This document shows positions 1 to 49,568 of a stretch of DNA of 64,000 nt, piece after piece; position 1 is the stretch's first letter; every line of letters begins with the position of its first letter. This stretch comes from an uncultured delta proteobacterium (GTDB lineage Bacteria; Desulfobacterota; Binatia; Binatales; Binataceae). The notes below the pieces were generated by a model. The model saw only the letters and a list, made by a program, of their open reading frames with translations. It made no database searches and was not told the origin of the DNA. Location: assembly GCA_963765675.1 (NCBI GenBank), contig CAVXXK010000005.1:4957-68956 (forward strand). Reading direction: 5' to 3'. The position numbers and the translations under genes were made by a program.

Positions 1-394
1 CCAGGGCTTGCTCGAACGTAACATCACCGAGATACGCACAATGCCGCAGCATCTTATACTGCGAGTATGCCCGGTCGACCGGGTTGCGCAGTGTAACGAT
101 TATTTTGCAATGAGGAAGATCGCGAGCGATCCGATCTAGTACGTCTTGACGGTGAAAATAAGTAGGACAAAACTCACCGATTCGCCGACCGGCCGGGCAG
201 TTGCGAAAATAGCCAGCATACCAAGTCAGCGATCGATCGTAGTACAAATCGAAGAATCGGCTTTCTTTGCTTAGAGGAAGGCCGACCTGATTCTTTAGTT
301 GTTCGTGCAGCCAGGTTGTCGCCGTTCGAATTGGACCTACTCCGATGAAATCAGGAAGTCGCGGCAAGCCGCTTTCATTCGGTATCGAATCCAT
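1..394 (-). CDS. sulfotransferase family protein (N-terminal 131 codons; gene runs off left edge)
   Basis: Own minus-strand translation from ATG at 394..392: MDSIPNESGLPRLPDFIGVGPIRTATTWLHEQLKN...CKIIVTLRNPVDRAYSQYKMLRH. GVGPIRTATTW resembles the PAPS 5'-phosphosulfate loop (PKxGTTW). RNPVDRAYSxY resembles the 3'-phosphate-binding motif. It is not in the ORF track because no stop codon lies inside the window. Confidence 0.7.
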   Translation of the reverse strand, partial: MDSIPNESGLPRLPDFIGVGPIRTATTWLHEQLKNQVGLPLSKESRFFDLYYDRSLTWYAGYFRNCPAGRRIGEFCPTYFHRQDVLDRIARDLPHCKIIVTLRNPVDRAYSQYKMLRHCAYLGDVTFEQAL

Positions 395-453: not shown

Positions 454-1314
454 TCAGATGGACGCTGGCGATCCTTCGCTATCGTTCCGAAAGTACATTC
501 CGGAATAGGCCTTGACGGTGCGTTCGGGGTGAAACGGGATGATGCAGGAAAATTCCGGTGTTTCCCAGCTGTCGATTAAAGAATATCCAAGTTCTTCGAA
601 AGCTCTAATGAAAGCGGTCCGGCCGTATATTTGGTACACACAAATAGCCGGACCCAAATTGTGCAGCGTCGCAAAAGAACGGCCCTCGCATAACGGAGTT
701 CGATTGATCAGAAGGTGTCGGGGTTTCGAAGGCATTTTTGATAGCGAGCGCCACAACGGAACCTCCAGAAACTGAAGCGAGCCCGACGCAAAAAGAACGT
801 CCGCGCCTGAACCGTCTTGAATCTCGGTCGTAAAACACAACCCATGCGTCTTCATCTGCTCCGCCAGTTTGCGTCCGTAAATCGCGGTCGCAGGAACTTC
901 ACAGACGCGCCAAACCATCCCAGCCGGGTATTCGAGGTATTTGTGAAATGAGTAGAAAGAAATACCGACATTGCCTCCGAAGTCGAACACTGTTGAATTT
1001 TCTTTGAGAAGTGGGGAAAGCCAATAGAGAATTGGATAGTCACTAGGCCAAAGCTGATCTATTTCGGAAGTGTGGCGGTTGGCCACCTCCGGATGGTCGT
1101 GTCCAACTCTGGAACCAACCGGAATGGCGTTTCGCGCCGTCTCAAAGCTGTCATATACTCCGGCAAACATTCGTGCCTTCGGACACTCATGACCAAAATG
1201 CTGTTCGTACTCAAATCGATGCCACGCGCGTAGGGGAGGTAGCCTTTCTTCAAGGGCGTTGACCAACGAACGAACCGCGCGCGACTGGAGAAGCGAACTT
1301 GCTAACTTTGCCAT
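454..1314 (-). CDS. SAM-dependent methyltransferase (TIGR04325 / LIC12133-like family, from memory)
   Basis: 286-aa ORF with the glycine-rich SAM motif VFDFGGNVG and class I methyltransferase spacing (VWRVCEVP ... DVLFASGSLQFLE). The start lies 5 nt after the stop of the TE fragment, which suggests operon coupling. Confidence 0.65.
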   Translation of the reverse strand: MAKLASSLLQSRAVRSLVNALEERLPPLRAWHRFEYEQHFGHECPKARMFAGVYDSFETARNAIPVGSRVGHDHPEVANRHTSEIDQLWPSDYPILYWLSPLLKENSTVFDFGGNVGISFYSFHKYLEYPAGMVWRVCEVPATAIYGRKLAEQMKTHGLCFTTEIQDGSGADVLFASGSLQFLEVPLWRSLSKMPSKPRHLLINRTPLCEGRSFATLHNLGPAICVYQIYGRTAFIRAFEELGYSLIDSWETPEFSCIIPFHPERTVKAYSGMYFRNDSEGSPASI

Positions 1315-1319: not shown

Positions 1320-1814
1320 TTATCGATGTGACTGCGCAAGCCGCCGCATCGGACCGCCGGACTTACCCAGATTGTCTGTCTGTCCAGCTTGAAGACCGAA
1401 ATGTTGGACCGAGCCGAGCGCCGCCGGAAGCTCGGATCGAGAAGGAAGTTGGCCAACCATGCAAAACTCCAGCTTTTGCGCAAGGGCTTGGGCATTGGGA
1501 CCGGAGGTCATGTCGTCGTGATCGCCGGGTACCTCGTGCACCTCGACGCCTCCCGAGGCGAGTCCGCCCCAGCCTAACTGATAGTCCTTTATGCTTACCT
1601 GGGAATCCGGACGCGTGCGCAAAAGAGTCAAGTGTCCCGGATATAACTGAGGCGTATAGTGAGCGGCAGCGAAGGCGTTGATGTCATGCATAGTTCCAAT
1701 ATGTTGCGGAACGGTCCGTCCCAACGCACGGTAGACTTCATAAATGATTTTAGTGACCCGCTTCTTCACGGCCGTGCGCGCATACTGCCATCGCCCCGGG
1801 CCGCGCAGCACCAT
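1320..1814 (-). CDS. C-terminal half of the NRPS thioesterase domain, out of frame with 1750..6918 (frame change near 1830-1845)
   Basis: The 164-aa ORF contains the TE catalytic-His region (VHEVPGDHDDM). The nucleophile motif GYSFGG lies in the other frame, at the end of the 1722-aa ORF. The two ORFs overlap by 65 nt. Confidence 0.75.
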   Translation of the reverse strand: MVLRGPGRWQYARTAVKKRVTKIIYEVYRALGRTVPQHIGTMHDINAFAAAHYTPQLYPGHLTLLRTRPDSQVSIKDYQLGWGGLASGGVEVHEVPGDHDDMTSGPNAQALAQKLEFCMVGQLPSRSELPAALGSVQHFGLQAGQTDNLGKSGGPMRRLAQSHR

Positions 1815-4800
1815 GCCGATCCGCGACCGGTAGCGATCCGATCTTCGCCCTCGCGTCCATCGATTTGAGTGACTGCCAGTGGTAGTGCCATTCGGGAGAA
1901 TCTAGCAGGGCCAAAAGACCAATAGTGTCTCCTTGCTGTATTAATTGGCGCCCCATTTCAAAAGTAACGAGGCCGCCGAACGAATACCCGGCTAGATAGT
2001 AAGGACCTGACGGCTGCTTTGTCTTGATTTCGCGAATATAGTGCGCCGCCATATCTTCCAGACGAGTCAGATATGGTTGCGACCCGTCCAGACCCGGTGG
2101 CTGCAAGGCAAACAAGGGACGGTCCGGGTGAAGGTAGCGCGTCAAGTCATTAAAGCGAATTACGTTTCCGCCAAGGCCGGAGATTATGTATAGCGGCGGG
2201 AGCGAACCACTGTGCCGGATTGCTACCAGTGACGACGACGGCGGCCTCCATCCATCCTGGCGCAAGATTTCAGCGAGCCCCTGGATGCTCGGTGTATCAA
2301 GCAGTGTGGATAGGGGCAACTTGGTCCCCCAACGCTGATTGATCCTCGAGAACAGCCGCATAGCAAGTAGCGAATGACCGCCGAGATGAAAGAAGTTGTC
2401 AGTAACCCTGATTTGTCGGACCCCGAGAACCTCCTCCCAGATTTCGATCAGCTCCGCTTCGAGCGAATCGCGATGTGCCTTGGGCAGGTGAGTGCGCTCG
2501 CTGTCGATTGCATCTTCTGTAGCCAATGCAGATCGACTTACGTGGCCATCCACATCTATCGGCAGCGAGTCTACGAATCGGAACTGAGAGACTTGAGGAC
2601 CATCTGGAAAAGATTCGGCTACTCGTTTCTTCAATCGCACCTCTAGTTCGCTTAAGGGCTTCGAAAAGGCAATCCGGGCATCAACCACTGCGTAGACTTC
2701 AACCTGCTGGCATTCCGAGGCCCGCCCACATGGCACCGCTAGGACTTCCGACAGCGACGGTTCGAGCATCAGGGCCGCTTCCAACTCGCCCACGTGGGTC
2801 CGGAAGCCGCCAATATTGACGTGTCGGCTGGACGGACCTAAAACGTCGATTTTGCCGTCGGACAAATAACGCCCCAGTTCGCCCGTCCTGAACCACGTTC
2901 CATTGAGCGCTTTGGAAAATCGAAAACTCGCCGCAGTAGATTTCTCGTCGCCCAGGTAGCCGCTCGCGAGTTCCGGCCCTGCGATACATATCATCGCCGG
3001 CACGCCCGCGGGCACCGGCTGCATATTCTCGTCGAGCAATCGAATCGCGAACCCTGGCGATGGAACGCCCAGAGTCAGGGCCTGATCTTCAACTCTGCCC
3101 TCGCTCCGCGCTTCAAAGATCGCCGCATGGTGCGACACTTCAACGCCTCCGTACGACACGAGCAGACGAATCTGTCCTCGCGCGACGCGTTGAAATGCAG
3201 CCACCGCGAGTTTCGACGGTCTGTCACCATAAAGGACAATCTTCTGAACGCATTGCGGAAAATCACGTCTCTCTTTCCCACCGCGCAATATCATGCGCTG
3301 CCAGAATCGAGTCGGCAGGATCAGCACACTGCATCGATGTCCTTCAACGAACTGCCGATAACGCGCGTCTGACTCCAATACGGTCGAAGGTACAAAAACG
3401 ATCGTGGCGCCAGCAATCAGCGATGAGAACACAAGCTCAACAGCAGGCGTCGAGTTAATCAATGCGATTCGATCCTCTGCGCGCAAACCGTAGGTCTCGA
3501 CGCCCGTCCATGCGCGGACATCAAACGCGCGCTGGCTGACTTGTGCTAGCTTTGAGTCGCTCGACGTCGACGATACCAACTGAATGATCGCCGTACGCGC
3601 GCCGTCCTCTTTGGACGACGTTCTCAGTGCGGCACACTCCGCGTTCACGTGCGTTTCATCGACACACACCACTTGCAGCCCGCGTCGGCGAAAAAGTTTT
3701 CGCCACCTTCTGCAAGTGATGACCGCCTTGATGCCATGCTCGTTCAACGCGCCCACACCGGCATTTTTCGAATCATCCGCGGGCAACAGCATAAACGCGG
3801 CACCGGCCTTGCCGGCCGCCAGCATGCCAATCACTAGATCTGGCAAATAGTCACTACAAATCGCGATTGTTCGGCTCGGAGCCAAATCCACTTTAACTAG
3901 CCGGCTCGCGAGTTGACTCGCACGATGATCAAGTTGCCCGTAGGTTAAAGTCTCATTGCCGGATATTATCGCTACTGCTTCAGACTTTTGACGAGCGAAC
4001 GATTCAATCCGACTGAGCGCCGGCTCGTGCTTCGCCGTTGCGGCGCCGAGACCGGCGCGGGAAATCATCTCGGACTCGTCAGTAGTCAGAATCGGAATTT
4101 GATTGATCCGCTGCTCCGGGTCGCAGAGAACGCAGTCTATGATCTGTTGAAAATGGCCGAGCATTCTCCGAGCCGTGCTCGCGTCAAACAAATCGGGCTT
4201 ATATTCCAATCGCGCAACGATCTCTCCGTCGCGCTCAAACGTTGCTAAATGGAGATCGAATTCGGTTCCAGAGCAATGCCACGTGATCGGAGTCCAACGA
4301 CACTCCTGAGTCTGTATGGTCTGCAAAAAGGCGACCTGATGAAAGAAATAGAATTGGAACAACGGATTGCGGCCTTGTATCTGCTCGACCTGTAGCTCGT
4401 CGACCAGATAGCGAAACGGTAAGTCCTTATGAGCCAACGCTTCTAGAGTCACCTCTCTGATGCGATGCACCAACTCGCTGAAAGAAGGATTTCCGTGAAG
4501 GCTGGTCCGCAGGCTTATCGGATACGCGAAGGATCCAACGATGCTCTCGGCGTCATCTGTCCGGCCCGACACGGGCGAACCTACTAAAATATCTTCCTGT
4601 CCGGTATAGCGTTTCAGCATCAACTTGAAGATCGCCAAGAAGAGCATGAAGGTCGTGATCTCCTCGCGTTTACAGAAGTCCTTCACAGCAACGACAGAAG
4701 CTCCGGCTATGTGGACGGTTTCGGTCGCACCTCGGGATACGAGTGCTGGCCGAAGCGGTCGGTCGCCCGGCAGATCGAGCAATGGTAGCCGGCCTTGAAG

Positions 4801-6918
4801 CTGCTTTTTCCAGTAGCTGAGGTACGGTTCAAAGTCGGCATTTTTGAGCCACTCGCTCTGCCAGTGCGAAAAGTCCGCGTACTGGAGAACGGAATCAGAA
4901 AGCGGCGAAGCCAAACCCTGTGAGTATGCGTCGTAGAGCGTGGTCAATTCGCGAACCACGATTCCGCTGGTCCATCCGTCGCAAACTATATGGGGCATCG
5001 TGAGCATCAAGATGTGCTCGCGCTCCTCCAGCTGGATAAGTCCCGCGCGAAAAATTGGACCTTGCGCGAGATTAAATGGCCGAACTGCCTCCTCACGAAT
5101 CAATTCTTGCGCCCTAGATTCTCGCTCGGTCTCGGAGGCGATTCGGAGATCCACCACTTCTAAGCTCGCGTCGTAGGGCGGGTGAATCACTTGCATCGGT
5201 TCGTCGTTCAACACGGAAAAAGTGGTCCGCAGCATCTCGTGACGCTTCACCAGATCCGTAAGACATCGGCGAAGCACAGTCGGGTCCAAGGTACCACTGA
5301 CCCTGAGCACTGCCGGCATATTGAGCATCGGATTACCCGGCATCAACTGCTCGAAAAGCCAAAAGCGCTGCTGGTTGATAGTGATCGGAAGGGCGTAGCT
5401 ATCAGACGCGGGCGACTCCGTCCCATCAGAGGCGTTGAGTGCTGTGCCACAAGAAGAGGCGTCTAACGAGTCGGACGTTCCGCGATTCGGAGCTAACAGA
5501 CCATCTAGAATTGCGCTCGTTCGCGTCGCCGGGAGATCAGTAGCTGTTTCCGACTTCGCTGGAACCAGCGCCAGCTGAAGTTCTGAGATCCGCTGATCTG
5601 GATTTCCTGCGACGCGCTCGAGCGTACCGCGATAGTTATCGAGCAATCCGCCGATAGTGCTAGGTTCGAATAGATCAGTATTGTATTCGCACGAGAGACG
5701 CCACCCCTCTGTGCGCATCACCAGGAAAATATTCAGTTCGTAGGGCGCGCCCTGCGATTTCGAGGGTATTGTGGTCAGCGTGATCCCTGAAAACTCCAGC
5801 GGTATGACCGCGTCGCGCTCGCAAATGAAGTTCAGCGGACAAAGGCCATGATGGCTCGGATAAACTTGAGGCTGAACCTCGGCAAGCAATTGTTCAAAGC
5901 GAAGGTTCTGGTTCACAAGCGATTCGGTTGCAGTCTTTTGTACGCGGCGCAGCAATTCGCAAAAGCTTGGATCGCCGGAAACATCGAACCGGAGAATCAC
6001 CGTGTTGATAAATAATCCGACCAGCGGCTCGAGGTCCAGGCTATCGCGTCCCGCTACTTGCGTGGACACTCCGAAGCTTGTTTGCCGCGTGTAGTGAAAC
6101 ACGAGGATGGCGAGGGCGGCCGCTGTAATCTGGAAAAACGTGGCACCTTCTTGATTAGCTATATGACCAAGGGAGTCACTGAGTTCCATTGGAAGCAGCG
6201 TCGATACGATCGCGGAATTGTAGGTTGGACGTTCAGATCTTGGACGGTCCGTAGGAAAGGTCGCAACGGGAAGTTGTGTTAGCTGTGTTCTCCAGTAAGA
6301 AAGATCATTTTTTACTTGTGCATCCTGCAAATGGTTGTGTTGCCAGATTGCATAGTCACCGTACTGAATCGTAAGTGGAGCAAGGTGCGGCTCCAGACGG
6401 TGGGAATATGCCGTGTAGAATTCTGCAAGTTCCTTTGCGATGACGCCGATCGACCAGTAGTCAGCAATCGAGTGATGAATCGTGAGAGTCATCACATAGT
6501 CGCAATCGCCGGCCTGCAGAAGACGGGCCCGCAGCAGAGGTCCGGCAGCCAAATCGAAGTGCTGATGTGCTGCCTCGAGGCAACGGCGGTCAACCGTGTC
6601 GGCGCGCTGAGCTTCAGGGAGGTGTCGGAGGTCTTCCATGGATAGCGTCACCGCCATCGAAGGAGCGATGATCTGAGATACGCGCCCATCGACGGTCGCG
6701 AGATTGGTTCGCAGGACCTCGTGGCGCTGGACGATTCCTTGTAGAGAGCGCTCGAGTATGGCCGGATCGAGCGGTCCCCGAAGTGCAAACCGCACAGCGA
6801 GATTCCATGCCGGATTGCCCGGACTTAGGCGGTCCAATGCCCAGAAACGTTCCTGTGCGAGCGATGCGGGCAGGACGTAGGTATCTCCGTGATCGAGATT
6901 CGTCGCATCACTGCTCAT
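1750..6918 (-). CDS. non-ribosomal peptide synthetase, C-C-A(degenerate)-T-TE(N-terminal half)
   Basis: 1722 aa. C1 is aa 13-445 (HHSIADYWS; nt ~5584-6882). C2 is aa 507-945 (PHIVCDGWTSG; nt ~4084-5400). The A-like domain is aa ~965-1465 (nt ~2524-4026) and has degenerate core motifs. T is aa ~1483-1552 (FFHLGGHSL). TE starts at aa ~1563 (GYSFGG). Confidence 0.93.
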   Translation of the reverse strand: MSSDATNLDHGDTYVLPASLAQERFWALDRLSPGNPAWNLAVRFALRGPLDPAILERSLQGIVQRHEVLRTNLATVDGRVSQIIAPSMAVTLSMEDLRHLPEAQRADTVDRRCLEAAHQHFDLAAGPLLRARLLQAGDCDYVMTLTIHHSIADYWSIGVIAKELAEFYTAYSHRLEPHLAPLTIQYGDYAIWQHNHLQDAQVKNDLSYWRTQLTQLPVATFPTDRPRSERPTYNSAIVSTLLPMELSDSLGHIANQEGATFFQITAAALAILVFHYTRQTSFGVSTQVAGRDSLDLEPLVGLFINTVILRFDVSGDPSFCELLRRVQKTATESLVNQNLRFEQLLAEVQPQVYPSHHGLCPLNFICERDAVIPLEFSGITLTTIPSKSQGAPYELNIFLVMRTEGWRLSCEYNTDLFEPSTIGGLLDNYRGTLERVAGNPDQRISELQLALVPAKSETATDLPATRTSAILDGLLAPNRGTSDSLDASSCGTALNASDGTESPASDSYALPITINQQRFWLFEQLMPGNPMLNMPAVLRVSGTLDPTVLRRCLTDLVKRHEMLRTTFSVLNDEPMQVIHPPYDASLEVVDLRIASETERESRAQELIREEAVRPFNLAQGPIFRAGLIQLEEREHILMLTMPHIVCDGWTSGIVVRELTTLYDAYSQGLASPLSDSVLQYADFSHWQSEWLKNADFEPYLSYWKKQLQGRLPLLDLPGDRPLRPALVSRGATETVHIAGASVVAVKDFCKREEITTFMLFLAIFKLMLKRYTGQEDILVGSPVSGRTDDAESIVGSFAYPISLRTSLHGNPSFSELVHRIREVTLEALAHKDLPFRYLVDELQVEQIQGRNPLFQFYFFHQVAFLQTIQTQECRWTPITWHCSGTEFDLHLATFERDGEIVARLEYKPDLFDASTARRMLGHFQQIIDCVLCDPEQRINQIPILTTDESEMISRAGLGAATAKHEPALSRIESFARQKSEAVAIISGNETLTYGQLDHRASQLASRLVKVDLAPSRTIAICSDYLPDLVIGMLAAGKAGAAFMLLPADDSKNAGVGALNEHGIKAVITCRRWRKLFRRRGLQVVCVDETHVNAECAALRTSSKEDGARTAIIQLVSSTSSDSKLAQVSQRAFDVRAWTGVETYGLRAEDRIALINSTPAVELVFSSLIAGATIVFVPSTVLESDARYRQFVEGHRCSVLILPTRFWQRMILRGGKERRDFPQCVQKIVLYGDRPSKLAVAAFQRVARGQIRLLVSYGGVEVSHHAAIFEARSEGRVEDQALTLGVPSPGFAIRLLDENMQPVPAGVPAMICIAGPELASGYLGDEKSTAASFRFSKALNGTWFRTGELGRYLSDGKIDVLGPSSRHVNIGGFRTHVGELEAALMLEPSLSEVLAVPCGRASECQQVEVYAVVDARIAFSKPLSELEVRLKKRVAESFPDGPQVSQFRFVDSLPIDVDGHVSRSALATEDAIDSERTHLPKAHRDSLEAELIEIWEEVLGVRQIRVTDNFFHLGGHSLLAMRLFSRINQRWGTKLPLSTLLDTPSIQGLAEILRQDGWRPPSSSLVAIRHSGSLPPLYIISGLGGNVIRFNDLTRYLHPDRPLFALQPPGLDGSQPYLTRLEDMAAHYIREIKTKQPSGPYYLAGYSFGGLVTFEMGRQLIQQGDTIGLLALLDSPEWHYHWQSLKSMDARAKIGSLPVADRHGAARPGAMAVCAHGREEAGH

Positions 6919-6946: not shown

Positions 6947-9900
6947 TCATGAGGAGCCAACCTTCTGATCCGGTACTATCGTTTGGCTTAACCTATACTT
7001 TGCGCGAGAAACTGGAACGATGGCTGGCATCGGGATGGTAGTCCCGTTTTGATTTTCGTTTTCGGCGTGCGCAAGCAACCCTTCGATCGTCCTGTACTTA
7101 AAAAACAACGGCGCAGCTACGCGCATGCCTGCCCTGGTTGCACGCGCTGCGATTTGAAAGATGTGCAGAGAGTCTGCGCCCAATTCGAATAGATCGTCCC
7201 GGATTCCGACCCTCTCCAAGTGAAGAATCTCGGCCCAGATCTCTGCCAGCGTTCTCTCAGAGGCGGTCCGTGGACCGACAAACTCATGACTGCGCGAGAA
7301 TTGAACCGTGGCCGGAGCTGGGAGCGCACACCGGTCGAGTTTTCCGTTCGGCGTAAGTGGCATCGAGTCCAGACGCACCACTGCGGATGGCAGCATATAG
7401 TCGGGCAGCTTCCCGATCAGAAATTCGCGGACTGCTGTAACGGTCAGCGCCTGCTGATTGGAGACCACATAGGCAACCAGTCTCCGGTCGCCAGGGGTGT
7501 CCTCACGAAGAATTACCGCGGCACCGGTCACTCCCGGATGCTTAGCCAGCGCCGATTCAATCTCTCCGAGTTCGATGCGGAAACCGCGCAGCTTCACCTG
7601 ATTGTCGAACCTGCCCACAAACTCAAGAGTACCGTCGGTCAGCCGCCGAACCCGGTCACCCGTCCGATACAGGCGCTCATTTCCGTCGACCCGGAATGGA
7701 TCTCGGATAAACTTCTCCGAGGTCAGCGCCTGCTGGTGAAGATATCCGCGCGCGACGCCGGCACCGCCGATATACAATTCGCCATCACATCCTATCGGAG
7801 CGAGCTGCCCAGCTTGGTCGAGCACATAGAACTGCGTATTATCGATCGGGAATCCAATTGGCACAGGACCCGGTCCAGGTTCAACTCGGATCGCGGACGA
7901 CCAAATCGTAGTTTCGGTCGGACCGTACATATTCCAAACGGAACTCGTCCGCTCCAACAACTGGGTTGCCAGCTCGCGGGATAGGGCCTCGCCGCCACAC
8001 AAAACCTTAAGCGTAGAACGTTCCGCCCATCCTGCTTCGATCAGGAGTGCGAACGTAACTGGGGTTGCCTGGATTGCCGTTGCGCCGGACTGGCGCAGGC
8101 GAGCGAGGAGCTGACTGCCATCGGACGCCTCCGCACGACTCGCAATGACCATTTTCGCTCCGACCGTAAGGGGCAGGAATATTTCCAGCGCCGCGATGTC
8201 GAACGAGAGCGTAGTGACCGCGAGCAACGTATCGTGGCAGCCGAGACCGGGGGTCTTGCTCATCGAGTGTAAGAGATTGACGACCGCACGGTGCGGAATC
8301 TCGACGCCCTTGGGTTTACCCGTCGAGCCCGAGGTATATATGACATACGCAAGGTCTTCGGAACTGACCGTGGGCCTCGGATCGTTTTCGCTGTCTTCTC
8401 GCGTAATCGCGCTCCAATGACTATCCAGGTAAAGAACCCGTCTGGAGCCCGGCGGCACGCTACGAGCCAGACTCTCCTGCGTCAATAATATCGGGACCTT
8501 CGCGTCTTCGAGCACGAAGGAGATGCGTTCTGCAGGATAGGTCGGGTCCATCGGTACATACGCGGCACCAGTTTTGAGGACGCCGAGCAAAGCCGTGACC
8601 ATGTCCAGCGACCGTTCGACAAATACCCCGACCAGCATTCCGACACCGACGCCGAGTTTCTGCAAATGCCGCGCTAGTTGATCGGCACGGTGATTCAGTT
8701 CGAAGTATGTTAATTGCCGGCCCTCGTACACCACCGCCACCGCGTCGGGAGTGCGCTGGGCCTGAGCCTCGAAAAGCTGATGGACGCAGCGTTCGGTCGG
8801 AAACTCGGCCTGAGTATCATTCCAACTGGCGATGATGCGCTGATGCTCGGCGGTCGATAGCAATGGCAGCGAGGAGATCCTCTGATTCGGATCAGCGCTC
8901 ATCGCTCCCAACAAAGTAGCGTAGTGCCCCAACCAACGCTCTATCGTTGCTTGGTCGAACAGGCCGGTATTGTAGTCGCAGTCGAGCATCAGGCCGTCGG
9001 CCGACTCAATGATGTTCAGAAATAGGTCCTGATTGACGAACGATTTGGCATTTGGCTCGATCGTCAGCTCGAGTCCGGAAAACTCGATGCCGGAACCCAT
9101 TCGCTCGAGGTTGAATTGAACCTCCGTCAGTGGCAACCGACTCGGATCGCGCTTGATCGGCAGCTTTCGAATCAAACGGCCATAAGTATAGTTCTGATGT
9201 TCGTACGCATCGAGGAGGGTACGTCTTACCTGAGCGAGATATTGCGCTGCTGAAAGACTATTCACGACCTCGCCGCGCAATGGCAGAAAATTGACACAAT
9301 GACCAACCAGGCTCTCGCCGTCGAGTGCCGCCTGTCCGGCAGCGGGAATTCCGATAACAATGTCTTCCTGCCCGCTGAGGCGGCTCAGTAGAATCTGAAA
9401 TGCGGCCAGTAACATGACAAATAGCGTGCATTTTTGCTGCGCGCCGGCCAGTTTGATATCTCGATAAGATTCCGCCGGAATCCGCAGACGACAGGTAGCT
9501 CCCTCATAGGATCTGGTGGCGGGTCGTGGCCGATCCAGAGGCAACTCGAGAAAAGCCGGAAGCGTGCTGAACTGCTCCTGCCAATAGGTCTCTAGAGCGG
9601 AAAGGTTGGAGCTCTGGAAGTGCTTCGCTTGCGACTCCGCGTATGCGCCGAAAGTCATCGGCTCTGGAAGCTCGTATGAGCGTCCCGCGCACGCCGCATT
9701 GTAGAGTCGGCGAACTTCGTCAAGAATTATATTTGTCGACCATCCGTCACACACGATATGATGCGCGGTGAATATAAAACGATACTCGCCGGGTCTGACT
9801 ACTATGAGATTTGCGCGGACCAGCGGACCGCGTTCGAGATCGAAGGGCGATCTTGCATCATCGGCAATGAATTGTGCCAGCCGCTTTTCGCGTGATTGAC

Positions 9901-12900
9901 CGTCAAGCGGTGTCAAATCCACAATCGGAATTACAAGCTTGGGGTCGGGCACGAATTGTTGGTATTCGCCGTTAGCGTCGAATTTCGCCCTCAGCGCCTC
10001 GTGCCGGGCAACTACCCTGTCGACGGCTGCGAGAAATGCTGCTACGTCGAGATTGCCGCGTAGCTTCAAAGTGAACGATTCGTTGTAACAACACGACGCT
10101 TGTTCACTGAGCTTTGCGGAGAGCCAAATCTCCTTTTGTGATTCAGTCAAGGGCGCCTGCCGCACTGGAACCGTGTGCGTGTTCTCCTTGATCGAAGTCA
10201 ATCCAGGTTCGGGTGGCTCCGGAGTAATGCCGTTGCCATTCAGGTGCGAAACGGAGCCATTGCGCGGCAGTTCCATGGGCTCCGAGTGCGGAGCCGGCAG
10301 GAATCCCGCAGCCTGGATCTCGAGCACGGACTCCCTGAACGCCTGAATCACCCGCGCGATATCTTCGTCGCTGTGCGCGGTGGTCAGAAACAGAGGAAAC
10401 CCTTCTTGAATATGTACTCCGCGTGCGCGCAAATAATAGTACAGCAGGCCTGCATGGATCAGTTCAGCAGGTAGCGTGAAATACGCAATTGATCCGAAGG
10501 TATCAACATGCGCCTGAACCTCCCGCTCTTCAAACAATGCATTCAAGGCATCGGCCATGTGCGTGGTTTTATTCGCGAGGTGCTCCCATAGTTCAGGTCC
10601 CGCGGTGTTTAAGTGATTGAGTACTGCAAATGCCGCGGCCAGGGCGAGTGGATGTCGCACGAATGTTCCTGCGAAGAACGTCACGCCCGTCTCAGGATAT
10701 GAATTGTCGCCGTAGTTCCACGTTCCACCGTCGAGCGCGTCCATAAAGGCGCTTGTGCCAGCAAGGACGCCAATTGGCAGTCCGCCACCCAGAACCTTTC
10801 CGTAAATCGCGAGGTCGGCCTTGATTCCGAACAGCGCCTGACAGCCTCCGCGATGCACCCGAAACCCTGTAACTACTTCATCGAAGATGAGCGCGGTTCC
10901 TGATTGCCGCGTGATACGTCTGACCTCCTTCAGAAAGTCGATCGGCTGCAGCGCGGGATGGCGGCTCTGAACTGGCTCAACCAGAACCGCCGCGAGTTCG
11001 CCTGCGTGAGCTTCGATGTAGCGCAGAGCTTCGGGCGTGCCGTAGTCAAGGACGATTACGTTCTCAACTTTTTCGCGCGGAATGCCGGGCGCCACGGGCA
11101 GTGAGCGCGGCCCATTTGGACCGTTGACGCCCTTGACCACTACTTCGTCGAACATTCCGTGATAGGCGCCCGTAAAGAGGACTATCTTGCTACGGGCTGT
11201 GATAGTGCGTGCCACCCGTAACGCCGCGGTCACCGCTTCCGATCCGGTATTGCAGAAGGTTACACGCTCCATCCCGGTCATGTCGCAGATAAGATCAGCG
11301 ACCTTGCCGGCTAACGGCGATTGCGGTCCGGTCTCATAGCCATGATCGAGCTGTTCGCGAATCGCCCGATTGACGAAATCCGGCGCATGGCCAAACATGA
11401 TAGGGCCGTATCCGTTTACCAAGTCGATATACTCATTCCCGTCAACGTCCCAGAGCTTCGAGCCGCTGGAACGAACGGTCACGATCGGGTAAACGATTTC
11501 CTTCCACTGCAGGCGAAATCCCGCGGCGACTCGAGGGTCAGCCAGGTGGCTCCGATGCTGCTGTGTCAGCCGCTTGGAGCCTGCGGTCTTCCTGCTGTAA
11601 CTCTCCACGAGTGCGCGCAGATGTTGTGATTGAAGAGGAGTTAGCTCCCGGGCTTTCCCTGCTTCAACCGGTACGAATGGAATAAATTTTCTCGGAGTAG
11701 GTCCGTGTAGTTTGACGGCCGCGGAGCCGTTCAATCCGTCCACAGGTTCTCGTTGCGCAGTGGCTACATGGACAGTTCTCGGGTCTGTGATCTGGTCAGG
11801 CACCGCGACGAATGCCTTGGTTTCCGTGTTCCTGAGAACCTCCAACTGTTTCGCCATCAGGTCCGAAAGCGTCTGAAGTTGGGTTTTGAATAGAAGCTGA
11901 AGATCCGGGCCGCCTCCAGCAGACGCAACAGCCGCATCTGCAGGGCGCGTCGCTGCGCGAGTTCCGCCCGCTGGCCCAGCTTCATTAGAGCACGGCAATT
12001 GGTGTTCGGAACGCGAGCTTTCTAGTTCGGCAATATCCGAAGCCCCTGAGGGTAGAGCTTGTGGCGGCAGTTTCTCATCAAGGTAGGCGGCCAGCGCGTC
12101 GAGAGTAGCCAGTTGATCGAGTAGTTGTCTGAACGTGATCTTCAGGCCAAACTCGGCGTGCAACATTTGCGAGACCTGGGTCAAAAATAGCGAATCGAAT
12201 CCGAATTCGAGAAAAGTAACCCCGCTGGCTGCGTCGCCGAGTCTGAGACCCGACAAATCCTCGAAAATACATTCCAGCCTCGACAGGATTCGTGCCTTGC
12301 GAGTCTCCAGTCGGGGCGACTGGATCGCCGTACCTTCTGAACTACCGGCCGCGCGCGCATCTTCGGGTCGCTGCCCATTAACAGATGCATGGAGGGAAGC
12401 CTTGTAGCTCTCAAGATCAGAACCAGATTTTTCGGTTGAGCTGGTCCGGGATGAATCTTCTTGGCCCGCAAGTGTGTCCGCGTTTCGCGCGGCGGGTCGC
12501 GGGCCGCACCAAAACCGCTTGCGTTCGAACGGGTAGAGCGGCAGCGAAACCCTGCGCCGCGAGTCGCCCGCATAGATTTGCGACCAGTTGGGTTGAGCCC
12601 CGTGCAGCCAGAGTTGGCCGAGAGCGTTCAGCACCGATTCCTCTTCGGTTTGCTGACCGTTACGACCGGGCATCGACGCAATCACGAGTTGATCAGGATT
12701 GTTCGCCTGATGCTGTCGCGCGAGCACCGACAGAGTGTTGCCCGGCCCGACTTCCAGCAGGGCGAAGTCTTCGGCCCGCAGTTTGGCTGCGCCGATTGAG
12801 AATCGCACCGGTAGCCGAAGATGATTCGCCCAGTATTCCGGATCGGTCGCTTCACGCGCCGTAATCCAGTCGCCAGTCACACTCGATAAAAACGGAATCT

Positions 12901-15151
12901 CGGGAATACTTATCCGCACCGGATCCAGTAACCGGAGGAAGGGCTCCCGAGCCGTATCCATCATGCTCGAATGGAACGCGTGAGAGGTCCGCAGCCGCTG
13001 GCAGACGATTCCCTCGCTCCCAAGCCGCTGCTCCAGTTCCGCGATCGCTTCGCAGGGCCCCGCGACCACGGTGAGTGATGGACCATTGACCGCCGCGAGG
13101 TTCGCAGCGGGACCGATAAAGCGCGCGACATCATCCTCGCTCAGTCGGACCGATAGCATCGCTCCCCGAGGAAGGTCGTGCATCAAGGCGCCGCGCCCGG
13201 CGACCAGCTTAAGCGCGTCCTCGAGAGAAAAAACACCTGCCATGCATGCTGCGACGAATTCGCCAATGCTATGGCCGATCATTGCCTGTGGACGAATACC
13301 TAATTGAAGCCAGAGCTGCGCCAATGCGTATTCGACGACAAACAGCGCAGGTTGCGCGATGGCAGTATCGTTGATTTCTTCGTCGGTTGGCAATGTATAG
13401 TTGGAATCAAACAGATTTCTCAGATTCGGTCCCGAGCCTGCGACGAGGATCTGCAGACAAATGTCGACTTGCTTCCGAAACTCAGGCTCGGCGAAGTATA
13501 GTTGCCGCCCCATCCCAACGTATTGCGATCCCTGTCCAGGGAACATGAATGCGACCGCGAGACGATTAGACGGTGTGATCCGTGTGAGTACTCGTCGGCT
13601 GCCGCCTGCCAGCACCGTTACCGCGTCAGCGGTGTCGTGAATCACGGTCATTCGACGGGCCTCGAAAGAATGACGGCCCATCATAAGTGTATATGCAACG
13701 TCGGCTAATTCAGCAGTCGGATTGGCCACCAGACTATCGGCCAAGTTCGACGTCGCCGCGTTGAGTGCGGCCTCGGTTTTGGCGGACACCAATATCAGGT
13801 GGGCCCCACGCCTCGACTTTGTGGCGAGAGCTTCCGGCGCCTCTTCCATGACTACATGCGCGTTTGTGCCGCCGATTCCAAAGGCGCTCACGCCCGCGCG
13901 TAGGGGCGTGGTGCCGCGCTGCCACGGCGAGAGGGCCGTGTTCACATAGAACGGCGAGTCTTCCAGATTCAGTTTCGGATTGGCGCTCTCGAAGTGCAAT
14001 GTCGGCGGCAACATCCGATGATGCAGCGACATCGCGGTCTTAATCAGCCCGGTCACTCCCGCCGCAACGTCCAGATGCCCAACGTTGGTCTTTGCCGTAC
14101 CCAGCGCGCAGAACTGCCGCCGCGTGGTCGAACGTCGAAAGGCCTGTGTCAGTGCGGCAATCTCAATCGGATCGCCGAGCGGAGTTCCAGTGCCGTGCGC
14201 CTCGATATATGAGATCGAGGCCGGGTCCACGCCGGCCGCGGAATGTGCCATCGCGATTGCGCTGGCCTGGCCGTCGACTCCTGGTGCGGTAAAGCCGACC
14301 TTTGCGGCGCCATCGTTGGTTACTCCGAATCCTTTAATCACGGCGTAGATCCGATCCCGGTCGGCAACCGCCTCCTGAAAACGTTTCAGGAGAACCACCG
14401 CGGCGCCATCACCGAAAACTGTGCCCTGGCTCGCGGCGTCGAAGGTTCGGCAATGACCATCGGGCGATACCATCCCTCCCGGCTCGTATAGGTAGCCGCG
14501 CCTCTGCGGAAACGTGATCGAAACGCCGCCGGCTAGCGCCATATCACATTGATAGTTCTGCAGGCTGAGACATGCCTGCGATACGGCGACCAGTGAAGTA
14601 GAGCATCCGCAGTTAAGTGAGAATGCAGGTCCGCGCAAGTTCAGTTTGTAAGCGACCCGGGTCGGCAGAAATTCGAAATTGCTGCCCAGCGTAGTAATAA
14701 AGTTACTTACCTGATAACCGGCCGTATACTGAGAGATGTCATCGCGATTCGAGCATACGTGTTGTGCGAAGTAGCTATTGAAACTGCACCCCGCGAACAC
14801 CGCGGTAATACCCGTGTACACCAGCGGGTCATAGCCGGAATCTTCGAACGCATGCCAGCAGCACTCCAAAAACATCCGCTGTTGAGGGTCGATCAGCTCA
14901 GCCTCTTTCGGATAAATGCCGAAGAACGCGGCATCAAACTTGTCGGCATCCTCGATGATCGCGCGCGCGCGCACGTAGTTGGGCATCCCGGAAACCGCTG
15001 CGGCGTCATCGATTTCGAGCTCCCCCGGCGCAAAGTGAGTGATCGATTCAACGCCCGCGCATAGGTTGCGCCAGAACTCGTTGATGTCCCGAGCTCCCGG
15101 GAATCTGCCGGCCATCCCGATAATCGCGATGTCAGTCAGAGCGTCACTCAT
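6947..15151 (-). CDS. hybrid PKS-NRPS megasynthase, KS-AT-ACP-aminotransferase-C-A(Gly)-T
   Basis: 2734 aa. KS is aa 6-437 (GCSTSL Cys183, EAHGTGT, NVGH; nt 13841-15136). AT is aa 532-835 (GHSIGE, HAFH = malonyl type; nt 12647-13558). ACP is aa 951-1027 (GFDSL; nt 12071-12301). The PLP aminotransferase is aa ~1170-1617 (NTGSEAV, IFDEVVTGFR, YGKVLGGGLPIG; nt 10301-11644). C is aa 1664-2095 (HHIVCDGWS; nt 8867-10162). A is aa 2120-2610 (YTSGSTGKPKG, YGPTE, YRTGD, GRFDNQVKLRGFRIELGEIE, NGKLDR; nt 7322-8794). T is aa 2627-2695 (LGADSL; nt 7067-7273). Confidence 0.96.
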   Translation of the reverse strand: MSDALTDIAIIGMAGRFPGARDINEFWRNLCAGVESITHFAPGELEIDDAAAVSGMPNYVRARAIIEDADKFDAAFFGIYPKEAELIDPQQRMFLECCWHAFEDSGYDPLVYTGITAVFAGCSFNSYFAQHVCSNRDDISQYTAGYQVSNFITTLGSNFEFLPTRVAYKLNLRGPAFSLNCGCSTSLVAVSQACLSLQNYQCDMALAGGVSITFPQRRGYLYEPGGMVSPDGHCRTFDAASQGTVFGDGAAVVLLKRFQEAVADRDRIYAVIKGFGVTNDGAAKVGFTAPGVDGQASAIAMAHSAAGVDPASISYIEAHGTGTPLGDPIEIAALTQAFRRSTTRRQFCALGTAKTNVGHLDVAAGVTGLIKTAMSLHHRMLPPTLHFESANPKLNLEDSPFYVNTALSPWQRGTTPLRAGVSAFGIGGTNAHVVMEEAPEALATKSRRGAHLILVSAKTEAALNAATSNLADSLVANPTAELADVAYTLMMGRHSFEARRMTVIHDTADAVTVLAGGSRRVLTRITPSNRLAVAFMFPGQGSQYVGMGRQLYFAEPEFRKQVDICLQILVAGSGPNLRNLFDSNYTLPTDEEINDTAIAQPALFVVEYALAQLWLQLGIRPQAMIGHSIGEFVAACMAGVFSLEDALKLVAGRGALMHDLPRGAMLSVRLSEDDVARFIGPAANLAAVNGPSLTVVAGPCEAIAELEQRLGSEGIVCQRLRTSHAFHSSMMDTAREPFLRLLDPVRISIPEIPFLSSVTGDWITAREATDPEYWANHLRLPVRFSIGAAKLRAEDFALLEVGPGNTLSVLARQHQANNPDQLVIASMPGRNGQQTEEESVLNALGQLWLHGAQPNWSQIYAGDSRRRVSLPLYPFERKRFWCGPRPAARNADTLAGQEDSSRTSSTEKSGSDLESYKASLHASVNGQRPEDARAAGSSEGTAIQSPRLETRKARILSRLECIFEDLSGLRLGDAASGVTFLEFGFDSLFLTQVSQMLHAEFGLKITFRQLLDQLATLDALAAYLDEKLPPQALPSGASDIAELESSRSEHQLPCSNEAGPAGGTRAATRPADAAVASAGGGPDLQLLFKTQLQTLSDLMAKQLEVLRNTETKAFVAVPDQITDPRTVHVATAQREPVDGLNGSAAVKLHGPTPRKFIPFVPVEAGKARELTPLQSQHLRALVESYSRKTAGSKRLTQQHRSHLADPRVAAGFRLQWKEIVYPIVTVRSSGSKLWDVDGNEYIDLVNGYGPIMFGHAPDFVNRAIREQLDHGYETGPQSPLAGKVADLICDMTGMERVTFCNTGSEAVTAALRVARTITARSKIVLFTGAYHGMFDEVVVKGVNGPNGPRSLPVAPGIPREKVENVIVLDYGTPEALRYIEAHAGELAAVLVEPVQSRHPALQPIDFLKEVRRITRQSGTALIFDEVVTGFRVHRGGCQALFGIKADLAIYGKVLGGGLPIGVLAGTSAFMDALDGGTWNYGDNSYPETGVTFFAGTFVRHPLALAAAFAVLNHLNTAGPELWEHLANKTTHMADALNALFEEREVQAHVDTFGSIAYFTLPAELIHAGLLYYYLRARGVHIQEGFPLFLTTAHSDEDIARVIQAFRESVLEIQAAGFLPAPHSEPMELPRNGSVSHLNGNGITPEPPEPGLTSIKENTHTVPVRQAPLTESQKEIWLSAKLSEQASCCYNESFTLKLRGNLDVAAFLAAVDRVVARHEALRAKFDANGEYQQFVPDPKLVIPIVDLTPLDGQSREKRLAQFIADDARSPFDLERGPLVRANLIVVRPGEYRFIFTAHHIVCDGWSTNIILDEVRRLYNAACAGRSYELPEPMTFGAYAESQAKHFQSSNLSALETYWQEQFSTLPAFLELPLDRPRPATRSYEGATCRLRIPAESYRDIKLAGAQQKCTLFVMLLAAFQILLSRLSGQEDIVIGIPAAGQAALDGESLVGHCVNFLPLRGEVVNSLSAAQYLAQVRRTLLDAYEHQNYTYGRLIRKLPIKRDPSRLPLTEVQFNLERMGSGIEFSGLELTIEPNAKSFVNQDLFLNIIESADGLMLDCDYNTGLFDQATIERWLGHYATLLGAMSADPNQRISSLPLLSTAEHQRIIASWNDTQAEFPTERCVHQLFEAQAQRTPDAVAVVYEGRQLTYFELNHRADQLARHLQKLGVGVGMLVGVFVERSLDMVTALLGVLKTGAAYVPMDPTYPAERISFVLEDAKVPILLTQESLARSVPPGSRRVLYLDSHWSAITREDSENDPRPTVSSEDLAYVIYTSGSTGKPKGVEIPHRAVVNLLHSMSKTPGLGCHDTLLAVTTLSFDIAALEIFLPLTVGAKMVIASRAEASDGSQLLARLRQSGATAIQATPVTFALLIEAGWAERSTLKVLCGGEALSRELATQLLERTSSVWNMYGPTETTIWSSAIRVEPGPGPVPIGFPIDNTQFYVLDQAGQLAPIGCDGELYIGGAGVARGYLHQQALTSEKFIRDPFRVDGNERLYRTGDRVRRLTDGTLEFVGRFDNQVKLRGFRIELGEIESALAKHPGVTGAAVILREDTPGDRRLVAYVVSNQQALTVTAVREFLIGKLPDYMLPSAVVRLDSMPLTPNGKLDRCALPAPATVQFSRSHEFVGPRTASERTLAEIWAEILHLERVGIRDDLFELGADSLHIFQIAARATRAGMRVAAPLFFKYRTIEGLLAHAENENQNGTTIPMPAIVPVSRAKYRLSQTIVPDQKVGSS

Positions 15152-25136: not shown

Positions 25137-26883
25137 CTACTTCTTCGTGAAGGCGAAGTGTTCGTCCATCCGGACCTGCACCTCGGTCAGATGGTTGCAA
25201 TACTGGAAGAAGCCGCCGTTGTAGTTGCCATCCTGACGGCGCTGGAACTCGCCCTCGAAGTTGTAGTAGCCGGGAGTGCATTCCTGGTTGCGATTGGTCT
25301 TGCCGCGATGCTCGATCACTTCGCCGACCCACCATTCCTCGGCCTGCGGAGTCGCATCGAGCGACTGGTAGCCGTGGCGGCGCGCGTAGTCGATGCACGC
25401 GGCGATATGATCGCCCTGCGCCTGCAGCATGTCGGTCAGGTTGAATTGGAATGAAGCCTGGTAGCCGCCCATGATGAAAAGATTCGGATAGCCCTGCGAA
25501 TGAATTCCCAAGAGCGTGCGGATACCCTCGCGATACTTGTCGTTCAGCTCGAGGCCGTTCTCGCCCCTGATCTGATTGTAGATGCCGGTCTTCTGCACCT
25601 CGAAGCCGGTCGCGTAGATCAGGACGTCGAGCTCGTACTGCTTGCCCTCGAACACCGGACCCTTTTCGGTGATCTCGGTGATCCCCTTGCCGTTCGTGTC
25701 CACCAGATGAACGTTGGGCCGGTTGAAGGTCGGCAGGTAGTCGTTATGAAAGCACGGCCGCTTGCACATCAGCATGTACCACGGCTTGAGCGCCTCGGCG
25801 GTGGCTTTGTTTTTCACAATCGAATCGATGCGCTGATGGATTTTCATCATCGCTTCGATATTCGCGTTCTCCTGGCGGCGAATCTTTTCCTCGGGCGACA
25901 TCGCGGCCTGCTTGGCGCGCTGCTCTTCGCTTAGCTGCGGCGCCATCCGGGCGCGTTCGCGCCGTCTCGTCTGCCATCCGGGAGGAAGCCTCCGCGCCCA
26001 GTTGGGATCGGTCGGCCAATCGTCGCGAACGTCGATCGATGACGGCGTCCGCTGGAACACGTACAGCTCCTTGGCCGCCGCGCCGAGGCCGGGAATCGCC
26101 TGGACCGCCGTCGCTCCGGTGCCGATGATGCCGACGACTTTGTCTTCCAGTCCCGAGAGATCAGGCTTGGTGTAGGCGTAGTCCCATCGCGAAGTGTGAA
26201 AGGAATGGCCCTTGAACGTTTCCAGGCCTTTGATCTTCGCGAGCTTCGGCTTCGAGAGAGTGCCGTTGGCGCAGATGACGAACCGCGCTTTCATCCGATC
26301 GCCACGGTCGGTCGTGAGGTTCCACATCTGCTCGGTGGGATCCCACACGGTCGAGGTCACGGTAGTCTGAAAAGTCGCCAACTCGTAGAGATTGTATTTT
26401 CGGGCGATCGCCTGGCAGTGCGCGAAGATCTCCGGGACCCTTGGCGTAGTGGTCCTTCGGCACGTAGTCGAGCTCGTCGAGCAGCGGCAGGTAGTCATAC
26501 GCGACCACGTCGCACGCCACGCCGGGGTAGCGATTCCAATACCAGGTGCCGCCGACGTCAGCGCCGCGCTCGACAATCCTGATGCTCTCGACGCCACGCT
26601 CACGCAGCCGCGCGGAGGTCAGCAGCGCCGAGAATCCGCCGCCGATAAACAGGACCTCGACGGTATCGTTGATCGGCTCACGCGGCTTGATCTCGCCTGC
26701 GTATGGATCGACTTCGTACTTGGACAACGCACCGCTGAAGTCCGACGTGTACTGCGCGGTGCCGTCGGGACGATAGTTCAACCTGAGGTCGCGTTCCTCG
26801 GCGAACTTCCGCTTGATCTCGTCGTAGAATTCCTGCGGCCGCGTGGGTCTGGCCGCGAGCCCGATAGGCTTTTCCTGCGCCAT
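25137..26883 (-). pseudogene. Baeyer-Villiger (flavin-containing) monooxygenase, frame interrupted at ~26432 (or assembly indel)
   Basis: The N-terminal part (ORF 26161..26883) has FIGGGFSAL (GxGxxG) and [20 protein letters not shown]. The C-terminal part (ORF 25137..26603) has the BVMO fingerprint [12 protein letters not shown] and a second [11 protein letters not shown]. The junction reads ...HYAKGP / EIFAHCQ.... Confidence 0.88.
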
Positions 26884-49561: not shown

Positions 49562-49568
49562 CGTAGTG

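Follow-up and report, generated by a model that had tools for sequence, protein, structure and literature searches.

How can a nonribosomal peptide synthetase (NRPS) load its last carrier when its own adenylation (A) domain has lost most of its catalytic motifs, and why would two condensation (C) domains precede that one carrier? These questions are raised by a gene on the minus strand of a 64,000-nucleotide stretch of DNA from an uncultured delta proteobacterium of the Binataceae (GenBank assembly GCA_963765675.1, contig CAVXXK010000005.1, positions 4,957 to 68,956; the whole stretch is designated the window). The gene encodes a terminal NRPS with the domain order C1-C2-A*-T-TE, in which A* is an adenylation-like domain, T is the carrier and TE is the thioesterase; it would be the termination subunit of a four-gene assembly line that also includes a CmlA-like hydroxylase, a stand-alone A-T protein and a megasynthase with the order ketosynthase (KS), acyltransferase (AT), acyl carrier protein (ACP), aminotransferase (AmT), C, A (glycine code) and T. 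We describe the domain anatomy, the loss of motifs, the conservation across the family, the series of architectures in related clusters and the specificity codes, and from these we infer who loads the last T, which C domain catalyzes and what C1 might do. Our account is that A* is a structural fossil, that the last T receives its residue in trans (Gly being the probable residue and the upstream A domain its probable source) and that C2 makes the bond; taken as a whole, we regard it as evenly poised between right and wrong.

Domain anatomy of the terminal NRPS

The open reading frame (ORF) at 1750..6918 (minus strand) is 1722 aa long and encodes C1, a linker, C2, A*, T and TE. Pfam identifies two full-length Condensation domains (joint score 611 bits), PP-binding (aa 1489-1551) and Thioesterase (aa 1575-1682); AMP-binding (aa 972-1322) scores 145 bits only, compared with 303 and 277 bits for the other two A domains in the window. 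The features of the gene are as follows.

5569..6882, minus strand: C1, full-length condensation-type domain, aa 13-450 (PF00668; HHSIADYWS; signature PSKSQGAPY...GWRLSCEY)
5401..5568, minus strand: linker between C1 and C2, 56 aa, Ser/Thr/Ala/Asp-rich (no Pfam match; 16% mean identity, 0 invariant columns)
4063..5400, minus strand: C2, full-length condensation domain, aa 507-952 (Pfam match aa 510-952 against profile positions 5-455/456; PHIVCDGWT)
2494..4005, minus strand: A*, adenylation-like domain, aa 972-1475 (fold kept; A3, Asp235, A5, A7, A8 and the A10 Lys lost)
2266..2454, minus strand: T, carrier domain, GGHSL with Ser1516 (PF00550; 67% mean identity; the Ser is invariant in orthologues)
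1837..2196, minus strand: N-terminal part of TE in the main frame, with GYSFGG (Ser1646) and the Asp of LLDS (PF00975, profile positions 2-110/226; 78% to orthologue P0002 by tblastn)
1836..1836, minus strand: extra single base (frameshift) within TE (P0002 aligns without loss of a residue over ...AKIG/RYRSR..., with a +1 change of frame)
1320..1835, minus strand: C-terminal part of TE with the catalytic His of GDH, in the shifted frame (65% to P0002 over 171 aa; stop-free)

A first-pass annotation, made from the letters and a list of ORFs, had described two full-length C domains with neither A nor T between them, and the Pfam scan agrees: the 56-aa linker contains no domain. The motifs that it quoted are all at the residues and nucleotides that it gave, that is, HHSIADYWS in C1 (aa 148-156, nt 6451-6477), PHIVCDGWTSG in C2 (aa 642-652, nt ~4963-4995), the A3 counterpart LVSSTSSDSKLAQV (aa 1114-1127, nt 3538-3579), the A10 counterpart DGHVSR (aa 1457-1462, nt 2533-2550), GGHSL of T (Ser1516) and GYSFGG of TE (Ser1646). 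The span that it assigned to the gene (2524-6882) is too short; the gene extends over 1320-6918, because the extra base at nt 1836 places the remainder of TE in the ORF at 1320..1835.

The adenylation-like domain

The loss of motifs in A* is seen in a phmmer alignment to LgrA and again when MAFFT is used to align A* with a fragment of PheA, which yields the known PheA code (DAWTIAAICK), and with the other two A domains of the window, both of them good. A3, Asp235, A5, A7, A8 and the A10 Lys (Lys517) all deviate from those of a functional A domain, and the specificity code reads TPEIVYSHHH, with Asp235 replaced by Thr and Lys517 by His. The erosion that the first-pass annotation had reported is, therefore, genuine loss, not misalignment or a shift of the motifs. 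In A4, FDxS aligns to S-T-P-A, one residue away from the NSTP that had been proposed; the loss of Asp235 stands.

In a search of a protein collection, ~25 proteins of 1810-1897 aa match the terminal NRPS at 38-59% identity over 97-100% of its length; they are encoded by Binataceae, Bryobacteraceae and other soil metagenome-assembled genomes. Among 21 orthologues, the mean pairwise identities are 58% for C1, 62% for C2, 67% for T, 68% for TE and 16% for the linker. For the A* core the value is 39%, with 12 of 404 columns invariant, and for its C-terminal subdomain it is 34%. All 21 have lost Asp235 and have H, R, N, S or E where the A10 Lys should be; GPxxRHxNxxG, a motif specific to the family, stands in place of A8; A3 is near-canonical at one extreme (FTSGSGGDPK) and partially deleted at the other; and A5 (YGTAE) and A7 (FRTGD) are fairly well retained in most. 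The residues of the specificity pocket differ from one orthologue to the next. When the window is compared with L011, the relative closest to it, the functional module-2 A domains of the upstream megasynthases are 80% identical and the A* domains 37%. An AlphaFold (AF2) model of A*, built with eight family sequences, has a pLDDT of 74.5 and a pTM of 0.79, and its superposition on A domains such as PheA and TycB gives TM scores of 0.73-0.79; its P-loop region (residues 136-166) is poorly defined (pLDDT ~30-50).

Because the A10 Lys and Asp235 are missing from 21/21 orthologues and the identity of A* is far below those of C1, C2, T and TE, the loss is ancient: A* is an old, fold-preserving and catalytically dead domain, and its state is a family trait, not decay private to this genome. 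We are confident, if not certain, that it does not adenylate. The last carrier thus cannot load itself, as had been suspected; relatives in which the A domain is half-deleted or missing keep the C-C...T-TE frame. We envisage A* as a vestigial A domain whose fold is retained, probably as a structural platform between C2 and T.

Could A* instead be an unconventional adenylating or ligating domain that works on a substrate other than an alpha-amino acid? The intact fold of the model, the A5 and A7 motifs kept in most orthologues, the near-canonical A3 of the closest relatives and the conserved family-specific A8 would fit such an activity. However, a Lys that is universally required in A10 has been exchanged for at least five different residues, just 12 of the 404 core columns are invariant, the pocket is not conserved between orthologues, and sister clusters that are otherwise alike have deleted the whole core or lost the A domain altogether, so we consider an active A* extremely unlikely.

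Orthologues and tail architectures

C1 contains a signature, PSKS[QP]GA[LI]Y...GWRL[SA]CEY, that locates the family beyond these full-length orthologues. Scanning one genome per species identifies 99 loci, the majority in Acidobacteriota; the others include MFD "uncultured delta proteobacterium" genomes, Binataceae and Gemmatimonadetes. Three of the carriers are cultured strains: Lichenicoccus roseus, with a C-A*-T-TE tail, and Granulicella aggregans M8UP14 and Bradyrhizobium sp. STM 3843, each with C-C-T-TE. Using tblastn with the domains of the window, we classified the tails (i.e., the terminal domain strings) of 80 scan loci together with loci fetched earlier.

C1-C2-T-TE, A-less, with ~20 aa between C2 and T: ~45 loci
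C1-C2-A*-T-TE: the window and ~6 species
C1-C2-(A7-A10 remnant)-T-TE: L007 and L052
C1-A-T-TE, with A intact: 6 loci
C1-A*-T-TE, without C2: L073-L075
C1 alone, without T or TE: ~13 loci
C1-T-TE: seen among the family loci
C1-C2-T-C-A-T-TE: L005

The C-C-A*-T-TE string that the first-pass annotation proposed to look for in other genomes is, therefore, recurrent, in the midst of a wider series of tails. A half-deleted A domain is found also in P0050, P0052 and P0056; three relatives of ~1490 aa lack the A core up to A7. All of the tail variants retain the stand-alone A-T and the KS-AT-ACP-AmT-C-A-T subunit upstream, and C2 is confined to tails in which the A domain after it is dead or missing. 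One protein, P0021, had been a candidate for C-T-C-A-T-TE, with the linker as the remnant of a deleted T; we rejected this organization because tblastn gives C1-C2-T-C-A-T-TE.

In Lichenicoccus roseus and related Acetobacteraceae (L073-L075, ~14,700-16,200), the terminal A domain is eroded, its code still being Gly-like (E-LQLGLIWH): it lacks A3 and A5, 26 residues are deleted before A7, and His takes the place of the A10 Lys. These tails have no C2, and their single C1 is canonical. As this eroded Gly-A domain stands without C2 and beside a canonical C1, its erosion would be independent of that in the window family, and the terminal Gly-A domain has apparently decayed at least twice.

In ~13 species (L009, 10001-11569; L076-L088), the genes for A-T and KS-AT-ACP-AmT-C-A-T are followed by nothing more than a free-standing canonical C domain of 480-520 aa, without T or TE.

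The two condensation domains

We judged the subtype of each C domain by ranking its similarity to solved structures and to NCBIfam models. Both are ordinary LCL-like: their best matches in the PDB are Txo2 and TycC6 (C1) and Txo1, Txo2 and TycC6 (C2), and similarity to fuscachelin, PvdL and AusA gives the same assignment. The scores for C1/C2 are 163-225/223-237 bits with the Txo and TycC6 domains, 146/140 bits with the X domain 4tx2, 56/48 bits with the CDA starter C domain and 46-49/54-60 bits with heterocyclization (Cy) domains; for epimerization (E) domains, there is no match at E 1e-10 with C1 and a score of 45 bits with C2. AmbE (7r9x) scores 75 bits with C2 and falls below the 1e-10 cut-off with C1; McyA scores 76-78 bits. 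The references for these types were TycA (E), EpoB and BmdB (Cy), CDA C1 (starter) and the X domain of teicoplanin, which lies between T and TE. The DxxxxD motif is absent from both C1 and C2, and neither is placed between T and TE. By this ranking, neither domain is of the E, Cy, starter or X type, nor does either belong to the Cmod (AmbE-type) subtype; the first-pass annotation had allowed that the second C-like region might prove to be an E or X domain, and it does not score as one.

C1 and C2 form separate clades; they are 34% identical to one another, and each is 28% identical to the C domain of module 2. C2 has the residues of an ordinary LCL domain (His643, Asp647 and Gly648), with the first His of the motif replaced by Pro; in the window family (PHIxCDGWS), this first His is the sole change. 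Across the tandem loci, the second (catalytic) His of C2 is kept in 56/56 and the motif is fully canonical in 44. C1 behaves differently. Its HHxxxDG motif is canonical in 22 of 23 tails with a single C compared with 13 of 57 tandem tails. Among the departures in the tandem tails are HHxxxDY[WILQ]S (the form in the window), HQxxCDGWS, HLxxADGWS, NQ... and YQ..., and 12 of the 57 no longer have the second His. In the window and in all of its close orthologues the Gly is replaced by Tyr, and in four of them the second His is Gln or Leu. By motif, then, C1 is not catalytically canonical; its full-length LCL-like fold is retained.

Since the second His of C2 is invariant, C2 is likely to be the catalyst that forms the bond. 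C1 has 83 invariant columns and is as conserved as C2, so a domain that, judged by its motif, has been freed from canonical catalysis must have another, non-canonical role. The first-pass annotation had suggested that one C domain is non-canonical; the motif counts agree with this for C1, the reservation being that the second His is still present in 45 of the 57 tandem loci. Dehydration, one of the roles that it listed, is not favored, because tandem C domains occur both with and without the CmlA-like hydroxylase and both domains are LCL-like. Because the tandem is equally present in clusters that lack CmlA, we rejected both a dehydrating function for C1 and the idea that C1 recruits the CmlA-like hydroxylase or forms an interface with it.

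A bolder idea, which we offer tentatively and think unlikely to be right in full, is that C1 with the PSKSQGALY signature represents a new subtype of the condensation fold: it would be derived from the canonical terminal C domain, be independent of the His, and be needed when the carrier has no A domain of its own, either to hold the upstream A-T didomain in such a way that its A domain charges the carrier downstream or for a second step that does not form an amide. If so, C-C-T-TE would be a previously undescribed A-less termination module, widespread in Acidobacteriota, that makes a family of peptides containing beta-amino acids.

C1 and C2 each also match, at ~166 bits, the PDB entry 8z0q, whose title is "Special condensation domain in NRPS".

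Loading of the last carrier

The candidates for charging the last T are encoded immediately upstream.

6947..15151, minus strand: megasynthase KS-AT-ACP-AmT-C-A-T (Pfam; KS Cys/His/His; AT GHSIG...HAFH, malonyl; A code DILQLGMIWK, Gly)
15194..17125, minus strand: stand-alone A-T loading module (Pfam; code DALWVGGTFK, Val/Ile-like)
17133..18824, minus strand: CmlA-like diiron beta-hydroxylase (Pfam CmlA_N, 281 bits)

The ORF of the stand-alone A-T is listed to 17296; its likely start is Met58 (nt 17125), and its orthologues are 647-655 aa in length.

The family itself suggests what the lost A domain once activated. In seven of seven cases, an intact terminal A domain has the code DILQLG[MV]IWK for Gly, the same as that of the module-2 A domain in its cluster, and in a distance tree the intact terminal A domains nest within the module-2 A clade. 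As the A domain of the upstream module has an identical Gly code, the terminal Gly-A is redundant; the simplest reason for its loss is this redundancy with an upstream A domain that is able to charge the last carrier in trans. That the last carrier belongs to a trans-loaded, A-less module is suggested circumstantially, by a cis A domain that is dead or absent and by homologues that share the upstream Gly code. We therefore put forward trans-charging of the last carrier with Gly by the module-2 A domain, a proposal that we rate at slightly below an even chance.

The first-pass annotation had looked to the stand-alone A-T as the source of the acceptor, that is, a beta-hydroxylated Val/Ile-like residue would feed the terminal module, either directly through a C domain or after being shuttled onto the last T. 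The cluster does contain genes for a free A-T and for the CmlA-like hydroxylase, two C domains per carrier leave one for a partner in trans, and kutzneride (KtzH A*/KtzN), cystobactamid (CysK A*/CysH and CysB) and syringomycin (SyrE/SyrB1 and SyrC) biosynthesis work in this manner. However, the A-T gene is directly upstream of the KS gene even in clusters that end in a complete C-A-T-TE or in a lone terminal C domain, and if the A-T were assigned elsewhere the N-terminal KS would have no starter donor; also, the intact terminal A domains are specific for Gly, not Val-like, the tandem C is present in clusters without CmlA, and the window yielded no shuttle of the SyrC or CmaE type. Because the stand-alone A-T adjoins the KS gene in all tail types and is the only visible donor of a starter to KS, it is, by gene order, the loading module and not the complement of A*. 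We judge delivery by the stand-alone A-T to be improbable and the source of the trans substrate proposed earlier to be probably wrong.

A different solution would be that the last T is never aminoacylated, with C1 and/or C2 non-canonical and T-TE just a station for off-loading; candidate chemistries are cyclization through the amines of the chain itself, coupling of two chains on a dimeric PKS-NRPS (polyketide synthase-NRPS) and transfer of the chain. The majority of the tails have no cis A domain, both C domains are under strong purifying selection, the chain would have two free amines after the aminotransferase step, and the simpler sister clusters that end in a free-standing canonical C domain (L076-L088) indicate that this clade of C domains can off-load alone. 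Nevertheless, in the C-A(Gly)-T-TE sisters the same clade acts in ordinary elongation onto Gly-S-T, and in L005 a C-A-T-TE module comes after C1-C2-T, so that its T acts like a normal intermediate carrier; to our knowledge, transfer by a C domain onto a bare phosphopantetheine thiol is without precedent. A carrier that stays free of an amino acid thus seems to us a rather poor explanation of these tails.

Trans-charging with Gly by the upstream A domain, followed by bond formation by C2, is the reading that we prefer, and several points weigh against it. That the module-2 A domain reaches the last T is presumed on circumstantial grounds. The A* of the window family is 25-27% identical to every class of A domain and occupies a long branch in the distance tree (tblastn with the window A* gives 28% vs 25.5%), so its presumed descent from a Gly-activating domain is based on where it lies within the gene, not on its sequence. 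Some C-C-T-TE clusters have a module-2 A domain that is not specific for Gly (DVWCIAMIYK, DFWNIGMVYK and others). C1, whose 83 invariant columns and identity of 58% (compared with 62% for C2) mark it as functional, has no more than a presumed role in our model; and the second His of C1 is kept in the window and in 45 of 57 tandem loci, so C1 may be catalytic. Finally, should the frameshift in TE prove genuine, this copy would be inactive.

The split thioesterase

The first-pass annotation had described T and the TE nucleophile as intact. Both are present; TE as a whole is split at nt 1836. In the main frame, Pfam covers just positions 2-110 of the 226 positions of the TE profile, and an extra base at nt 1836 (aag atc gga, then t, then cgc tac) shifts the remainder of the domain to the ORF at 1320..1835. 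The Ser (GYSFGG) and the Asp (LLDS) of the catalytic triad are in the main frame; the His (GDH) is in the +1 frame beyond nt 1836. After repair of the frame, the protein is 1865 aa in length compared with 1881 aa for its orthologue P0002.

A frameshift also divides a second conserved gene of the window, which encodes a Baeyer-Villiger-type flavin monooxygenase at ~26.4-26.5 kb (minus strand; ORFs 26161..26883 and 25137..26603); the GGGFSAL Rossmann part is in one frame and a further part in another. The closest relatives of the window are MFD metagenome-assembled genomes, several of which have many split genes.

Should the pathway, then, be regarded as dead in this genome? The frameshift parts the Ser and Asp of TE from the His, and the A* of the window is the most eroded of the family, more so than those of its nearest relatives (A3 LVSSTSSDSK compared with FTSGSGGDPK, A5 YGGVE compared with YGTAE, and A7 TGE compared with TGD), as a pseudogene would predict. 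Yet 5.2 kb of reading frame is free of stop codons, the conservation of C1, C2, T and TE matches that in the orthologues, the shifted segment of TE is open and 65% identical to P0002, the 8.2-kb gene upstream and both of the smaller genes are intact, and the second frameshifted gene of the window is of a housekeeping type, which points to indels in the assembly. We consider a dead pathway very unlikely. Given that the shifted part of TE is conserved and open, that a second gene is split and that the MFD relatives are rich in split genes, the frameshift is most likely an indel error of the assembly rather than a real mutation.

The surrounding gene cluster

Two further genes adjoin the terminal NRPS.

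454..1314, minus strand: methyltransferase, TIGR04325 family (NCBIfam, 199.7 bits; 33-56% identical to genes in five related clusters)
2..394, minus strand: start of a sulfotransferase gene, cut by the edge of the window (Pfam Sulfotransfer_1 and Sulfotransfer_3)

A sulfotransferase is encoded also in related clusters L003, L011 and L012, and the conserved neighborhood often adds a sulfotransferase, JmjC/cupin proteins and a PAF-acetylhydrolase-like hydrolase. The methyltransferase and sulfotransferase are probably tailoring enzymes of the same pathway. The CmlA-like hydroxylase accompanies a loading A domain of the Val/Ile type, DA[LF]W[LVI]GGTFK (L001, L019, L021, L053, L059 and others), and is absent where the code of the loading A domain is DMYNFGVVWK or DFWNIGMVHK (Thr-like; L014-L017 and L077-L088); this co-variation fits hydroxylation of the starter amino acid.

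Pfam scans of the 20-64 kb region of the window identify no further A domain or shuttle enzyme; the genes there, which include oxidoreductases, esterases and an ATP synthase operon, are unrelated. At 48,704-55,393 (minus strand) are this operon, which encodes gamma, alpha, a b/delta fusion and a second alpha/beta-type subunit, and a glucan phosphorylase-like gene, neither of them related to the cluster. In three of the related loci, a second A-T-KS unit with the A code DILQFGM[VI]W(K) is located immediately downstream of the cluster (L003, ~21,980-25,643; L011, ~21,270 on; L051, ~23,590 on); it may be an adjacent, related assembly line.

A proposed assembly line

These assignments suggest a route, parts of which are read from domain order. 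A Val/Ile-like residue, as specified by the code, would be loaded on the stand-alone A-T and presumably beta-hydroxylated by the CmlA-like enzyme. Extension with malonate by KS-AT-ACP and transamination to a beta-amine would then give a 3,4-diamino acid unit, which would be condensed to the Gly that the code predicts on the module-2 carrier. Loading of the last carrier would take place in trans, with the module-2 A domain as the probable source and Gly as the probable residue, after which C2 would link the resulting aminoacyl group to the chain carried by the upstream T. TE would release the product by hydrolysis or by cyclization/lactamization onto the beta-amine, and the methyltransferase and sulfotransferase would complete it. 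C1 would descend from the canonical C domain with which the simpler sisters terminate or elongate their line and presumably now docks or positions the upstream carrier, or performs another non-canonical step. The predicted product is a small peptide with a 3,4-diamino acid that is possibly hydroxylated, methylated and sulfated.

Discussion

Inactive or missing A domains with carriers loaded in trans are known, as isolated cases only. In the pathways for kutzneride (a truncated A* in KtzH, served in trans by the stand-alone A domain KtzN) and cystobactamid (an inactive A domain in module 3 of CysK, supplied by CysH via the CysB shuttle), a defective A* is kept in C-A*-T and the carrier is loaded from elsewhere; these clusters and that in the window also share a beta-hydroxylase. 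The window differs in its likely donor, which is not a dedicated stand-alone A domain but an A domain of the same specificity (Gly) one module upstream; its stand-alone A-T is the loading module, an extra C precedes the working C, and no shuttle was found in the window. A single A domain that serves more than one carrier, as apparently here, is known from yersiniabactin (HMWP2 loads the carriers of HMWP1) and from thalassospiramide, and most of the sister clusters (C-C-T-TE and C-T-TE) are truly A-less, as in those systems. In contrast, the fossil A domain of the window is still of full size, the family extends from intact to absent A domains, and loading in trans is deduced from genomic context.

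Adjacent domains of the condensation fold, one of them non-canonical yet conserved, occur also in vibriobactin VibF, in which Cy1 and Cy2 divide the labor, and with the C-like but catalytically dead X domain of the glycopeptide synthetases. Unlike these, C1 and C2 are LCL-like, being neither Cy (DxxxxD is absent) nor X; C1 is upstream of the working C domain and not between T and TE; and the tandem is not correlated with the hydroxylase, so a role in recruitment is not indicated. The upstream megasynthase follows the KS-(AT)-ACP-aminotransferase-C-A-T logic of MycA (mycosubtilin/iturin) and McyE (microcystin), in which a beta-amino acyl group is condensed to an amino acid; here, however, the starter would be an amino acid from the stand-alone A-T (DALWVGGTFK) and not a fatty acid, and the line is very short and ends in the unusual C-C-A*-T-TE.

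We know of no characterized C-C-(A*)-T-TE termination module and of no product that has been assigned to this cluster family. To the known logic of trans-loading, C-C-A*-T-TE adds a recurrent unit of tandem C domains and a natural series of stages in the loss of the A domain: in a cluster family of ~100 species-level genomes, every stage is kept, from an intact Gly-A domain through point-eroded, heavily eroded and half-deleted domains to none, and in the tandem tails C1 has mostly lost its canonical motif. The family is, therefore, a natural experiment on the structural contribution of A domains, on the loading of carriers in trans and on functions of the condensation fold beyond the formation of peptide bonds; because it occurs in the cultured strains of Granulicella, Bradyrhizobium and Lichenicoccus, these questions are testable.

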